Below are positions 6,001 through 12,000 of a stretch of 20,197 nucleotides of DNA, piece after piece. The first letter of the stretch is position 1. Every line of letters starts with the position of its first letter. This stretch comes from Elusimicrobiota bacterium (GTDB lineage Bacteria; Elusimicrobiota; UBA8919): NCBI GenBank assembly GCA_043816185.1, contig JBDRIG010000030.1, positions 1 to 20,197 on the forward strand, written 5' to 3'. A program made the position numbers.

Positions 6001-9000
6001 TCTCTAAGTTTTATTGCAATTGGAAGAACACCATTAACCCGTCTTATTGAACCATCAAGAGACAGTTCGCCCAATAATGCATATTTTTTATTGCCAGTTT
6101 TTATTTGTTCTGTAGCGAGAAGAATTCCTATTGCAATAGGCAAATCAAAAATCGCACCTTCCTTTTTTACTCCAGCAGGTGCAAGATTGACGATAACTTT
6201 TTTCGTCGGAAAATCAAAACCGGAATTTTTTATCGCTGAAATAACCCTGTCACGAGATTCTTTTATAGATGTATCAGGAAGTCCAACTATACCAAAAGTA
6301 GGAAAACCGCTGGAAATATCAATTTCAACAGTAATGATATATCCATTTATTCCATAGACAGATGCAGAAAGTATTTGTGAGAGCATATTTTTTTCTTTTA
6401 AGGTAGGACGGTCGAGTAGATTCTACGAGTAAATTCAGCACAGATGAATCTTTCGGTGAAAATCTTTAAACCCTATCACTACTTCATTAAGTTCAGTTTG
6501 TTATTGTGAATGACCTTGTCTGTCATTGCGGGAAGTGAATGAAATGAGCGTTAGAGGTTGTCCGACAAATCGTAAAACAGTCATTTTTTTTTGTAAAATA
6601 TAGCAGTATTTGGCAACTAACGGCAACAAACAACACATCATTTTTTTACTAACGCTGTGTCGTCGGTAAAGCGGAATAGGTTGTTGGACAGCCACTATTA
6701 CGCGATAGATGTATAACAATCCAATCGTCGCCGCTATATTGCGAAACCAGATGGTGCAAACGCATTTTTTATATGTTCAATTTTATCATTGCAGATGGCA
6801 ACTATGTCAAATCTATAATCAGTATTCAGAGATTTTTTTTTAATGAAGATAATGGCGGCAAGAGCTAAATGCTTTTGCTTATATTTAGTAACGGCAAGTT
6901 GTGGATCTCCATAATTACTATCTTTTCTGGTTTTAACCTCTACAAAAACAAATGTTTTTTTGTCTTTGACAATTATGTCTATCTCTCCATATCTGGTTCT
7001 GAAATTTTTCGCTACGATTTCATAACCAATTTTTTTAAGATATTCCTCAGCAAGTTCTTCTCCAGATTTTCCAAATTCACTCGACTGATTCATATCACCT
7101 TGATTTATAATTTTCTGATTTATAGCTTCGCACAGGTTCAAAACTTTTTCTGTGAATTTTACAGGGACCAAATATTTCAATCGACTTTACATGAAATTTT
7201 GTGCCATAACCCTTATGTTTTGCAAAACCATAATTGGGAAATTGCCTGTCATATTTTTCCATCAACACATCACGTGTCACTTTTGCAACAACTGAAGCAG
7301 CCGCAATAGATGCACTTTTTGAATCGCCCTTCACAATCGTTTTCTGAGCAATCTTTATATTTATTGTTTGATTACCGTCTATAATAACTAATCTTGGACT
7401 AACTTTCAATTTTTCAATTGCAATTTTCATTGAAAGTTTTGTTGCTTCTAAAATATTAATACGGTCTATTACCAGGTGGTCTACAATTCCGACCTGCCAG
7501 TCAATGCATTTTTTGATAATTTCTTTATAGACGGAATACCTAATTTTTGGGGTGAGTTTTTTTGAATCGTTTAGATTTTTTATTGAGGTGTTTTTTTTTA
7601 GTATCACTGATGCTGAAACAACGGGTCCTGCCAATGAACCTCTGCCTGCTTCGTCAACACCGACGACAAAACCAAATTTACAAAATTTTTTGTCAAAATC
7701 AAACAATTTTTTTCCCGAAAACACTCGGGATTTCGTTTTATTCAGCATTATTTGCTTCTATTTTCACTTCGCTCTTAACAGACTCATTTGCAACAGGCTC
7801 TTTTACAGCAGACTCTTTTGCTACGATGATTTCTTTTACTTTTTTTTCTTCAATTTTTGCCAATTTGCCAGACAATCCACGCAAATAATATAAACGGCTT
7901 CTTCTTACCTTACCAAGTTTTACAATTTCTATTTTTTCTATGCGTGGCGAGTTAAGAAGAAAAATTCTTTCAATGCCAATACCAAAAGAAACTTTTCGGA
8001 CTGTAATTGTCTTGCTGATACCAGCACCCTTTTTTCTTAAAACCACTCCCTCAAAAATCTGAGTTCTCTCAAAATCACCCTCAATAATTTTGTAGTGGAC
8101 CTTTACCGAATCTCCGGGCCTAAAAATAGGTATCTCTTTTTTTTGATACTGATTTTCAACAACACTCATAATGTTTTCCATTTTTTTCTCCCTCCAAAGT
8201 ATTGTGGTGAACTGACATGAAACCTAAAGCACGAAATATAATATGTAAAACAGATACTAAACTATTTCCGTGTCAGTTACGTATTTTGTTTTGCGTGCAC
8301 CTCACGATTTTTCAGTAATTCTGGACGTTTTGATAATGTATTTTGACGAGCATTTTCTCCACGCCATTTTTCTATTTTTTTGTGATTGCCTGATAAAAGT
8401 ACTTCTGGAACTTTTAAGTTGCGAAAATTGTAAGGTCTTGTATAGACAGAACTTGCAAGACCGCCAATCCAGTGTGAATCATTTTTAATAGAGTCACTTT
8501 TTGCTACAACTTTCGGAAGTATGCGGACTACCGCATCAACGACCGCCATAGTCGGAATCTCGCCACCAGTCAAAACATAATCTCCGATGGAAATTTCCTC
8601 ATCAACAAATTTTAGAACTCTTTCATCAACTCCGCCGTAATGACCACAGACAAATATCAAGTGCTTATATTTTGAAAGTTCCTTTGCTTTTTTTTGATTA
8701 AAAACTTTTCCCTGTGGCGAAAGTAAAATAATTTTTTCATTTTTATTTTTCACTCGCCCGACGGTAGTCAAATAAATTTTACACCTTACGCTTTCTACCG
8801 CTTTAACAACTGGTGGCACCATCATAATCATTCCAGCGCCGCCACCATATGGTTTGTCGTCAACAATTTTGTGTTTACCCTCAGCAAAATCTCGTATATC
8901 TGTAATTTTTATTTTTACAATTTTTTTATCAACAGCTTTTTTTAGAATACTTTGAGAAAAAACAGAATCAAAGAGCGACGGAAAAAGCGTCAATATATCT

Positions 9001-12000
9001 ATTTGCATTCGCTATATTCACCCTATTTATGATCTATACTCGCTCTTCCATTTCTACCCTGTATTTTTTGCCGTTTTTTGTTGCACCTGCTGAAACTATC
9101 TGTCTTATTGCTTTTATAATTTTTCCATGCTTGCCGATGATTCTGCCCTTATCATCATCTGCAACTTTTATTTTTATAACATCTCCTATTTCCGATTCAT
9201 CTAACAGTATATCAACATTTTCTGGCTTATCAACGAGTGATTTTACAATATATTCAACAAATTTTCTCATTTTAAATCTCCTCCGTAAATCTATAAAAAA
9301 CTATTGTGGTGAATTAGTTTTGCCAAATTTTTCAATAATGCTTTTTACTGTATTAGAAACAATTGCACCTGTTTTTATCCAGTAGTTTATTCGTTCCATT
9401 TTTAGTAATACATTTTTTCTATCACGCGGACTATAATGCCCAAGTTCTTCTAATGGTTTACCGCACTTTCTTTTTTTTGAATCGATCGCTACCACACGAT
9501 AATCTGGACAAAGCGATTTCCCAAGTCTCCTTAGTTTAATTGTAACTGCCATTTTTTGACCTCCTTTATATCAGAGATTAAGAGAGATAAAAAGTAAGAG
9601 AGGTAAGAGGGTAAAAAATTTTTCTCTTGCCCATCGTTTTCTTGTCTCTCATTTCTTGTCTCTCATCCCTATCCAACTAACATTTTTAATTTTTTTATAC
9701 TTTTTTCAATTCCAAGATTTGATCTAAAAACTGAATTGCCGGCGACAGCAATATCAGCACCTGCTTTTACCACATCCGCTATTGTATCAAAATTTATTCC
9801 GCCGTCAACACTTATTTTTATTTTCGTTATGTTTATCCGTTCAGAAGATTTCAAAGAATGTGTTGCAATATTTTTATTTTTTATCAATTTTTTCAATTCT
9901 GAAATTTTTTTTAGTGCCGATGGAATAAACTTCTGTCCACCGAAACCAGGAACAACACTCATTATAAGAATTAAATCCACTTCTTTAAGATATTTTGTCA
10001 GTAACGAAATGGGTGTTGCTGGATTAAGTGAAATACCAGCTTTAAGTTTCAGTGATTTTATTTTTTCAATCAATCTTGATGGATTTTTCACCGTCTCAAT
10101 GTGAAAGGTTATCCAATCACTTCCTGCTTTTGCAAACTGCTCAACATATTTTTCTGGTTCCGCTATCATCAAATGCGTATCTAAAATCATTTTCGTAGAT
10201 TTTCTTATCGATTCAACCACTACTGGACCAATAGTTATATTTGGAACGAAATGGCCGTCCATAACATCAATGTGCAAAATTTTTGCACATGCTTTTTCAC
10301 ATTTTTTTATGTCATCTGCCAAATTTGAAAAATCTGCGGACAAAATTGAAGGAGCAATTTCAATCATTTTTTATTTACCTGCGAACACTCAAACGATAAT
10401 CGAATGTAGTCAAATTGTGATTATATTCGGCGTGATTATTCGGTGTTTTTATTTGAGCCTATTGCGTCCAGAATTCTATCGTTTCATCTTTATTAATTAT
10501 GGTATTGTTTTCTGGCATTTGTTTTGTGATAGTATTTTTAGCAACTACCAAATCCTCAACCTTATTTATATTGCTAATTTTTATATCATTTTGATTAGCC
10601 CAATTTTGAGCTTCAAATATATCTTTCCCCAAAAAATTAGGCATTATCAAGGTTCCCTCTGGTGGAAGACCTAACGAAACAACTATATTGACCAACCCGT
10701 CTTTCTGAATATGTGTTCGTGGGTTAGGATTTTGTGAAACTATATTTCCTTTTTCAATGACTGTTGAATATATCTCATCTTGTTCACCTAGATCTAGCCC
10801 ATTTTTTCTTAAAATAAGTTGAGCAGAACGAACAGTTTGATTTGTTAAGTCAGGAATATATATAACTTCACTTCCGACGGAAACCACAACATTTACAGAT
10901 TTACCTTCTTTAATTATACTTCCTTCAACAGGCGACTGCGAAATTATTAAACCACATGGTATCTCTACATTAAATTCTTCACCAGTTTTTTTAAGATACA
11001 AATTTATCGATGACAGTATATCTAACGAATCGGCAATATTTTTTCCTACAATGTTTGGTACAACTCTATCTTTTTTACTATGAATTAGCACATCAATTAA
11101 ATGATTTGTTCCAATAGCAAGAACAATTATTCCTATTAAAAACCACAGAATCCATGAAAAAAGTTTTCTCATTATATTTTAACAACGATGAAAACAAAAT
11201 AACACACTGATTTATATTGATTTTCATCTGCGTTGTATCAGTTCTTTATTTGTCTAAATCGTCTTACTTAATAAATAATTCGCGGACCTTCTGCTATTTT
11301 CTCAAGTCGTTTGATTCGCTCTTGTATCGGTGGATGTGTAGAAAACAATTTAACTATCGCACCATTTTTAAGCGGGTTCACTATAAATAAATGGGCTGTG
11401 AATGGCTCAACCCTGCCATGCGAAGCGGAACTTCTTTTTGTCTGAATAAATTTTCCTGAAGAATAATCTTCTAATTTTTTTAATGCGGATGCTAGAGATA
11501 ACGGCATTCCTGTCAATTTTGCCGCACCTTCATCTGCACCGTATTCGCGTGAACGAGAAATCGCAAGCTGGATAAAAAGTGCTGCTATTGGTGCAACTAT
11601 TGCTGTTACCAAAAGCCCAATACCACCACTTCTATTATTATTGTCATCACGAGAACCACCACCAAAAATCGCAGTAAATTGTACTATTCTCGCAATCATT
11701 GATATTGCACCTGCCATCGTCGCTGCCATTGTCGCAATTAAAATATCGCGGTGTGATATATGTGCAAGTTCGTGTGCCAATACTCCCTCAAGCTCATTTT
11801 CATTAAGAATGTCTAACACCCCTTTCGTTACGGCAATAGATGCATGTTGAGGATTTCTGCCAGTAGCAAATGCATTCGGCGTTTCCATCGGAAGAATATA
11901 AGCTTTCGGCATTGGGATATTCGCTTTTACGATGAGTCGTCTTATCACTCTATATATTTCAGGTGCGTCATTTTCGGAAATTGGTTTTGCCCTGTACATC

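Follow-up and report, generated by a model that had tools for sequence, protein, structure and literature searches.

The window, i.e., the whole stretch of 20,197 nucleotides of contig C30 (JBDRIG010000030.1) that was analyzed, carried an rpsP–trmD cluster with the gene order rpe-rpsP-KH-trmD-rplS, all on the minus strand, as displayed by window ORFs and their Pfam matches:

9669..10367, minus strand, rpe, ribulose-phosphate 3-epimerase (PF00834, 251.5 bits), adjoining rpsP upstream
9553..9668, no strand, gap of 116 bp between rpe and rpsP (from ORF coordinates)
9301..9552, minus strand, rpsP, ribosomal protein bS16 (PF00886, 60.2 bits)
9034..9270, minus strand, KH-domain protein of the KhpA type (PF13083, 83.3 bits)
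8277..9008, minus strand, trmD, tRNA (m1G37) methyltransferase (PF01746, 190 bits)
7738..8181, minus strand, rplS, ribosomal protein bL19 (PF01245, 149 bits)
7095..7748, minus strand, rnhB, RNase HII (PF01351, 125.1 bits), extending the same-strand cluster

The slot upstream of rpsP, held by ffh in many other bacteria, was taken by rpe, and ffh was not present in the rpe-rpsP-KH-trmD-rplS cluster of the window. No space was left next to rpe for an ffh remnant, since the intergenic gaps flanking it measured only 116 and 91 bp (from ORF coordinates). None of the Rfam families reached its gathering score anywhere in the window, and custom Ffh and FtsY profiles gave a single 4.4-bit P-loop match on the contig, in a Mg-chelatase-like gene. 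An earlier note on this DNA had read the epimerase at the ffh position as a sign of loss. The location of rpe was correct, but as evidence of loss it is weak alone: of 80 related loci, just 21 had ffh at most 6 kb upstream of trmD, although none of 9 Elusimicrobia-titled loci did.

When trmD of the window served as query for named relatives, the closest named records were titled Elusimicrobia or Elusimicrobiota (66–88% identity at TrmD) and formed one clade with the window TrmD, with full support. The phylum is thus Elusimicrobiota, and the assignment to Omnitrophota made in the earlier note was not upheld.

The absence of Ffh, FtsY and SRP RNA from the genome that harbors the window (1,444,528 bp in 112 contigs, free of N, 94.28% complete, 0.54% contamination) was confirmed by Pfam, Rfam, custom profiles and a motif scan. 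For the SRP54 GTPase domain (PF00448), no match was obtained above the cut-off with 15/15 candidates scored, and the top score (19.3 bits) belonged to an ATP-cone + PRK/uridine-kinase protein. The Ffh M domain (SRP_SPB, PF02978) and both SRP RNA families, RF00169 (55/55 candidates scored) and RF01854, gave no match at E ≤ 10. Custom profiles, for which 21 Ffh and 8 FtsY sequences were taken from outgroup loci, reached maxima of 14.3 and 28.3 bits, respectively, both on the same ATP-cone + PRK/uridine-kinase protein. The motif DT[APS]GR, present in 21/21 Ffh and 8/8 FtsY controls, occurred once in the six frames of the genome, inside ribosomal protein bL31. When methionine-rich segments resembling the M domain of Ffh were sought, the scan picked up YidC and unremarkable membrane proteins, with no soluble candidate.

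The joint absence of ffh, ftsY and ffs was clade-wide and extended beyond single reduced genomes, as displayed by searches with PF00448, PF02978 and RF00169. The phylum sample spanned 34 family codes and 98 genus codes, and its genome sizes ranged from 0.4 to 4.6 Mb, so that genome reduction is not general in the phylum. No genome of 301 exceeded the PF02978 cut-off (top score 18.6 bits, all candidates scored), and RF00169 was found in none of 151 genomes (25 candidates scored, stricter filters). The PF00448 run, in which 10 first-look candidates were scored per genome, placed 29/301 genomes nominally above the cut-off of 22.7 bits. Matches in 28 of these did not exceed 25.2 bits and were short partial alignments by model range, mostly of the P-loop (the one inspected was Era-like), while the sole strong match (144.9 bits) was FlhF, encoded between FlhA and a MinD-type ATPase. 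Neither Ffh nor FtsY was therefore detected by PF00448 in any of the 301 genomes, and the phylum-wide lack described in the earlier note was borne out, FlhF being the only true SRP-type GTPase of the sample. Elusimicrobiota genomes of 3–4.6 Mb that were 95–100% complete likewise lacked an SRP GTPase (PF00448), as did five MAGs titled Elusimicrobia or Endomicrobia with all candidates scored.

An artifact of incomplete or mis-binned assemblies, or of the search pipeline, is almost certainly not the explanation. The genome under study is 94.3% complete and split into 112 contigs, its relatives are mostly MAGs, and the large runs scored part of the first-look candidates. However, four genomes assembled into a single contig and a fifth in two contigs reached at most 17.7 bits with PF00448 when all candidates were scored, and RF00169 was not found at E ≤ 1, again with all candidates scored, in the same four single-contig genomes and one genome of a second phylum (0/5). 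Completeness was at least 90% in 234 of the 301 genomes, and within the phylum the same kind of search recovered YidC (Pfam) and RNase P RNA (RF00010) in 99/101 genomes each. In a comparison phylum represented by MAGs only, centered on a genome titled Atribacterota, SRP GTPases were detected in 74/81 genomes, mostly two in each; single MAGs titled Cloacimonadota, Chlamydiia and Ignavibacteriales displayed an SRP GTPase at 94–256 bits; and named control genomes matched the query family in 12–14 of 14 (PF00448, PF02978, RF00169, RF01854). Taken with the independent profiles, the single-contig genomes and in-sample controls support a genuine and lineage-wide absence of Ffh, FtsY and SRP RNA in Elusimicrobiota, as the earlier note had proposed. 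This absence is defined by homology searches, which would miss a substitute that is not homologous or has diverged very far, and the genomes surveyed are samples of larger phyla.

SRP components that exist in these genomes and are too diverged, split or recoded for the Pfam and Rfam models are very unlikely. The lineages are deep and fast-evolving, with long SecY branches in Elusimicrobia according to one study (PMC7987157), and in part of the phylum's families RNase P RNA scored as low as 38–100 bits, which indicates that RNAs of those families can be divergent. Against such divergence, SecY (376 bits) and YidC (188 bits) of the genome under study were readily matched, so that its export machinery is not generally unrecognizable. 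FlhF, which with Ffh and FtsY makes up the SRP-GTPase family, was picked up at 145–161 bits in both SRP-less phyla, while the profiles drawn from a varied set of Ffh and FtsY never exceeded 28.3 bits and the invariant DT[APS]GR was confined to bL31. The search also reads through stop codons, and the three parts were gone together.

FlhF was the only SRP54-domain protein found in the two SRP-less phyla (1/301 Elusimicrobiota, 4/151 genomes of the second phylum). It has no M domain, scores 145–161 rather than 220–256 bits, and is encoded with a MinD-type ATPase on one side and FlhA (FHIPEP) on the other. FlhF does not stand in for Ffh or FtsY, and the majority of genomes were without it.

The Sec and YidC machinery was retained despite the loss of SRP, as previously noted: SecD and SecF were found in the genome under study along with SecY, YidC and a SecA of 883 aa with a SEC-C zinc finger, and the phylum-wide count for YidC (99/101) agreed. 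YidC was encoded in a YidD-YidC-Jag arrangement, with a YidD-like ORF upstream of yidC. About 100 polytopic membrane proteins were encoded, classic SRP clients among them (two AcrB, two FtsW/RodA, two MurJ, H+-PPase, TrkH, LptF/G, RnfD, FtsK, Lnt and Lgt). Neither a compensating domain, fused or extended, nor an adaptation of YidC, SecA or SecY was visible.

Insertion by YidC/Oxa1-family insertases in the absence of SRP has precedents. Mitochondria no longer have SRP and depend on the tail of Oxa1, and Streptococcus mutans has a dispensable SRP together with YidC2. Elusimicrobiota resemble these systems in SRP-free insertion by such insertases, but differ in lacking the extended ribosome-binding insertase tail on which S. 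mutans YidC2 and Oxa1 rely, a tail also absent from the second phylum. Compensation by a long, positively charged, ribosome-binding C-terminal tail of YidC (as in Oxa1, YidC2 or the Rhodopirellula YidC) was considered, since YidC was kept in 143/151 genomes as well as in the 99/101 above, and was rejected as barely credible because the tails are short. After the last membrane helix, the tail measured 17 residues in the genome under study, with a median of 7 (range 4–20) in 30 Elusimicrobiota loci and of 6 (range 0–14) in 30 from the second phylum. The YidC Pfam core of 177–188 residues covered about 161–163 model positions, so that a large internal insert is absent as well, and in Parcubacteria, too, a long tail was not found (Nelson and Stegen).

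The whole SRP system was very probably lost in Elusimicrobiota, anciently, and membrane proteins would reach SecYEG/YidC without a dedicated particle. The loss would date to the base of the phylum or earlier. Likely routes could be translating ribosomes that dock directly on SecYEG/YidC, the action of SecA on nascent chains, or both, and slow growth with a high membrane-to-volume ratio may make the loss tolerable, an idea put forward in print for Parcubacteria. SRP is dispensable in some bacteria, such as S. mutans, and slowed translation relieves SRP loss in E. coli; both precedents speak against the need for a replacement. A dedicated targeting factor, protein or RNA, that is not homologous to SRP and substitutes for the particle is considered unlikely. 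It would account for the delivery of about 100 polytopic proteins, large SRP-type clients included, by a YidC, SecA and SecY of ordinary appearance; 9/85 scanned membrane ORFs had no Pfam match and might offer room for it; and the loss is common to three large radiations, for which a shared solution is conceivable. Yet the methionine-rich scan provided no candidate, and the neighborhoods of rpsP and yidC were ordinary.

The same absence was observed in the second phylum, centered on a MAG titled Omnitrophota, where PF02978 was found in 0/121 genomes and Ffh or FtsY in 0/151 (19 candidates scored per genome for PF00448; 25, with stricter filters, for SRP RNA). One genome displayed an SRP RNA (48.4 bits) on a contig of 1.87 kb. 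The absence in this phylum is probably real, and no report of it for Omnitrophota was found in the literature searched. In a CPR sample (the phylum of a Saccharibacteria-titled MAG), an SRP GTPase was encoded in 1/201 genomes, the exception being a 231-aa SRP54-domain ORF, and SRP was detected in 0/5 titled CPR MAGs. A speculative extension, to which we give a rather low probability, is that at least three radiations are without SRP (Elusimicrobiota, the Omnitrophota-titled phylum and CPR/Patescibacteria) and share an unrecognized delivery of nascent membrane proteins, through either a non-homologous factor or an obligate SecA or ribosome–translocon mode. Were it true, "universal" co-translational targeting by SRP would fail for a substantial part of bacterial diversity.

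SRP loss in Elusimicrobiota is already known in print, contrary to the earlier note, which had found no paper on it. One study describes both SRP RNA and protein as missing from Elusimicrobium minutum Pei191 (PMC4779614, 2016), and another finds SRP homologues in few Elusimicrobia, suggests compensation by SecY, and counts 1 Ffh and 1 FtsY versus 20 SecY among Elusimicrobia-labelled GenBank proteins (PMC7987157, 2021). The single Ffh and FtsY entries count against a loss without exception. These reports concern the same phylum and the same three missing parts, but comprise one genome and a survey of GenBank proteins, whereas the searches made here covered the six frames of 301 genomes and extended to the RNA, and closed genomes, members of 2–4.6 Mb, matched positive controls and the window's own family were added. 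For CPR, namely Parcubacteria (OD1) and numerous others, ffh and ffs were undetected throughout a radiation while Sec and YidC were kept, YidC had no long basic C-terminal tail, and the proposed permissive factor was a small volume of the cell (PMC4508563, 2015; PMC8080830, 2021), and the CPR sample above agrees with this. Elusimicrobiota are alike in the clade-wide loss of SRP with Sec/YidC kept and no long YidC tail. They differ from CPR, which are symbionts with genomes of about 0.6–1.3 Mb and a short YidC form, by including genomes of 2–4.6 Mb, and by a long YidC with a periplasmic domain, and LPS-transport and outer-membrane genes, from which a two-membraned envelope is predicted. For Elusimicrobiota of 3–4.6 Mb, an explanation by small cells is not an obvious fit.

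SRP is routinely called universally conserved, for example in paper abstracts, and scattered remarks in genome papers on SRP-less lineages have not reached the SRP literature. The new elements are the scale of the survey, large genomes included, the same absence in the Omnitrophota-titled phylum, and the CPR count. Such remarks now become numbers with matched controls: 0/301 Elusimicrobiota, 0/121 and 0/151 in the second phylum, and 1/201 CPR, versus 74/81 in the comparison phylum. The loss of SRP extends past tiny symbiont genomes, and the long YidC tail that would be its obvious compensation is missing. Elusimicrobiota include cultured species, in which SRP-independent biogenesis of polytopic membrane proteins would be directly testable in an outer-membrane bacterium. 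The absence also bears on sets of marker genes in which ffh and ftsY are treated as universal.

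The studied stretch (7741-10367) was part of a minus-strand gene cluster with the following members:

9669-10367, minus strand: rpe (PF00834, 251.5 bits)
9301-9552, minus strand: rpsP
9034-9270, minus strand: gene for a KH protein of the KhpA type
8277-9008, minus strand: trmD
7738-8181, minus strand: rplS
After rplS, minus strand: rnhB, then a UPF0102 gene

The gaps flanking rpe measured just 116 and 91 bp, which leaves no space for a decayed ffh. The gene order itself, which the earlier note had cited because an epimerase gene lies where ffh was expected, proved weak as evidence of loss, since only 21 of 80 loci had ffh close to trmD. 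No Rfam family reached its gathering score in the whole window. As the finding is an absence, it had to be tested at the level of the genome and of the phylum. rimM was not found between rpsP and trmD in this cluster, where the KH protein gene stood. Elsewhere in the window, genes for a HEPN-domain protein (158 aa) and a nucleotidyltransferase (Polbeta/NTP_transf_2, 188 aa) were adjacent and slightly overlapping (3781-4801, minus strand), an arrangement typical of HEPN-MNT toxin-antitoxin modules, and a single 564-aa ORF (12401-14095, plus strand) carried a Memo-like domain fused to an AMMECR1 domain.

The absence of the signal recognition particle (SRP) from this genome and its phylum, as claimed in the earlier note, was borne out by profile, Rfam, custom-profile and motif searches, and the loss is genuine. 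In the genome containing the window (G000; 1,444,528 bp, 112 contigs, 94.28% complete, 0.54% contaminated, no masked bases), the SRP54 GTPase domain (PF00448) gave eight matches at E ≤ 10, none of them above the cut-off (best 19.3 bits, all 15 candidates scored). These sub-threshold matches were the P-loops of an ATP-cone + PRK kinase, ABC transporters, PilT/GspE ATPases, DnaB and a MinD-type protein. The M domain of Ffh (PF02978) and the SRP RNA models (RF00169, RF01854) had zero matches at E ≤ 10. Independent profiles built from 21 Ffh and 8 FtsY sequences of outgroup loci, run with relaxed filters against six-frame ORFs of at least 40 aa, reached at best 14.3 and 28.3 bits, respectively, both on the ATP-cone + PRK kinase. 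This 475-aa ORF (G000:C90:9902-11326, minus strand), which topped every SRP54 search, was identified as an ATP-cone domain joined to a PRK/uridine kinase; the fusion (about 460-490 aa) was conserved across the phylum and was the top false SRP54 match in this family of genomes. For the motif search, a regular expression joining three SRP-GTPase motifs recovered just 12 of 21 Ffh and none of 8 FtsY controls and was replaced by the G3 motif DT[APS]GR alone, which recovered all 21 and all 8. In six-frame translation of the genome this motif occurred once, in ribosomal protein bL31.

At the phylum level, 301 genomes were evenly drawn from a larger phylum, 234 of them with completeness of 90% or more and contamination of 5% or less. 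The M domain was above cut-off in none of the 301 (best 18.6 bits, every candidate scored). PF00448 nominally exceeded its 22.7-bit cut-off in 29 of the 301 genomes (10 candidates scored per genome), 28 of these matches reaching no more than 25.2 bits and being, judged by the listed model ranges, short, partial and mostly confined to the P-loop. In one family of the phylum, ORFs of about 350 aa aligned to SRP54 positions 66-170; these were set aside, the single inspected example being Era-like (MMR_HSR1 + KH_2). The sole strong match (144.9 bits) lacked an M domain and was assigned to FlhF from its location between the FHIPEP (FlhA) gene and a MinD-type ATPase gene. SRP RNA (RF00169) was found in none of 151 genomes (25 candidates scored per genome, stricter filters). 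With every candidate scored, no SRP GTPase was found in five MAGs titled Elusimicrobia or Endomicrobia, and PF00448 gave nothing above 17.7 bits in four single-contig genomes and one two-contig genome. Genomes of 3-4.6 Mb that were 95-100% complete were also among those without a match.

Assembly gaps, binning or tool failure are not credible explanations in view of the positive controls. YidC and RNase P RNA were each detected by the same pipeline in 99 of 101 genomes from the phylum. In a comparison phylum of MAGs, centred on an Atribacterota-titled record, 74 of 81 genomes had SRP GTPases (E ≤ 1e-10), in most cases two of them, at 215-256 bits; individual MAGs titled Cloacimonadota, Chlamydiia and Ignavibacteriales were also positive, and each query family was matched in 12-14 of 14 named control genomes.

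The phylum had been taken for Omnitrophota, which is wrong for the window: its TrmD was 66-88% identical to those of seven records titled Elusimicrobia or Elusimicrobiota bacterium, with which it formed one clade at 100% support in a tree of TrmD, RplS and RpsP. Omnitrophota entered the analysis separately, since three MAGs titled Candidatus Omnitrophota and meant as positive controls all lacked the tested domain (PF00448 in two, PF02978 in one). Two small MAGs titled Planctomycetales and Planctomycetia were likewise without the tested SRP domains, and these five MAGs (L017, L030, L057, L032, L061) formed a clade of their own (96% support), separate from that of the window. Deep nodes of the three-protein tree, including any sister relation of the two SRP-less phyla, were not resolved.

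In the phylum of one of these Omnitrophota-titled MAGs (G306), whose genomes come without completeness figures, the M domain was found in none of 121 genomes. PF00448 was matched at E ≤ 1e-5 in 5 of 151 genomes, namely by four FlhF and one MeaB (26.3 bits), with no Ffh or FtsY. Over both SRP-less phyla, all five strong SRP54 matches were FlhF, four lying between FHIPEP and a MinD-type ATPase and the fifth starting at a contig end and followed by a MinD-type gene. RF00169 at E ≤ 1, with every candidate scored, was absent from the four single-contig genomes of the window's phylum and from one genome of this second phylum, and in the wider sample of the second phylum it was found in 1 of 151 genomes, G430. 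This SRP RNA (locus G430:C236:298-1870) scored 48.4 bits, was truncated where its 1.87-kb contig ends and adjoined a tRNA; G430 had no M-domain match and did not appear in the list of genomes with an SRP-GTPase match, and the RNA may be either a relic or a wrongly binned fragment. As controls, YidC was detected in 143 of 151 genomes and RNase P RNA in 92 of 101. The YidC sequences were at most 45% identical to that of the window genome, and the sample therefore held no close kin of it.

The window genome retained its export machinery, including SecY (376 bits), SecD and SecF, an 883-aa SecA complete in its domains, SEC-C zinc finger included, and a long-form YidC (60KD_IMP, 188 bits, with the periplasmic domain) encoded between a short ORF read as YidD and a jag-like ORF. 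Potential clients were numerous, as 100 of about 1296 crude ORFs had at least four hydrophobic segments. Pfam families were assigned to 76 of the 85 ORFs (230-1100 aa) searched among these 100, including AcrB (two), FtsW/RodA (two), MurJ (two), H+-pyrophosphatase, TrkH, LptF/G, RnfD, FtsK, Lnt and Lgt. Two giant open frames were also observed, one of 7136 aa with 8 predicted hydrophobic segments (G000:C99:598-22005) and one of 9632 aa with 23 (G000:C101:3-28898, starting at contig base 3).

As to how membrane proteins are delivered, translating ribosomes probably dock directly at SecYEG/YidC, or SecA takes nascent chains, both of which are known as minor routes in E. coli. A high membrane-to-volume ratio and slow growth may help. 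Elusimicrobium and Omnitrophota have been described as very small cells, and the small-cell argument is weaker for members with genomes of 3-4.6 Mb. A ribosome-binding YidC tail of the Oxa1/YidC2 type was rejected, the C-terminal tail measuring just 17 residues in the window genome; tails ran to 4-20 residues (median 7) in 30 loci from its phylum and to 0-14 residues (median 6) in 30 from the second phylum (anchored by phmmer, 30 of 30 loci covered). The large YidC-core insert reported for Parcubacteria was not seen either, the Pfam match covering 177-188 residues. A dedicated, as yet unrecognized targeting factor substituting for SRP appears unlikely; a search for a methionine-rich, M-domain-like soluble protein found none, its top window being YidC itself. 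Trigger factor was discarded as a correlate of SRP loss because its pattern was inconsistent: Trigger_N had no match on any contig of the window genome, was present in two single-contig relatives within frames of 442 aa, and lay in frames of only 309 and 326 aa in two second-phylum genomes (G306:C112:4319-4741; G457:C1:415107-415535).

The earlier note knew of no paper on the subject, but published reports of SRP loss exist, so that the core finding is already known and the phenomenon is of a known kind. PMC4779614 gives both the RNA and the protein of SRP as missing in Elusimicrobium minutum Pei191, and counts Dehalococcoidia among the SRP-less groups. According to PMC7987157, only one Ffh and one FtsY were obtained from Elusimicrobia versus 20 SecY, SRP homologues occur in few Elusimicrobia, SecY branches are long, and a targeted study is called for. 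The single Ffh and FtsY that GenBank labels Elusimicrobia, like an FtsY-like fragment in genome G719, may be contaminants or relics. PMC4508563 describes Parcubacteria with ffh/ffs in no genome and YidC without a long basic tail, and proposes small cell volume as helping. PMC8080830 gives two SRP subunits as missing in Vampirococcus and in many CPR bacteria besides. The present analysis contributes scale and controls, rejects a compensating YidC tail, and offers the lead that SRP loss extends to the Omnitrophota-titled phylum; on that phylum no such published statement was found, judged mostly by titles and abstracts, in literature searches that excluded subscription journals and bioRxiv supplements.

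Five CPR-titled MAGs contained neither PF00448 nor PF02978, and in the phylum of a Saccharibacteria-titled MAG an SRP GTPase was found in 1 of 201 genomes. This lone SRP54-domain ORF (231 aa) lay near a contig end, next to a DUF1207 gene and an ORF read as release factor 2, and probably sits on a foreign contig. In the three-protein tree, seven MAGs titled 'uncultured Gammaproteobacteria' (L020, L023, L044, L047, L050, L067, L084) fell in a 12-row clade (99% support) whose other five rows were titled Levybacteria/Levyibacteriota or Patescibacteria group, and the titles of the seven look wrong.
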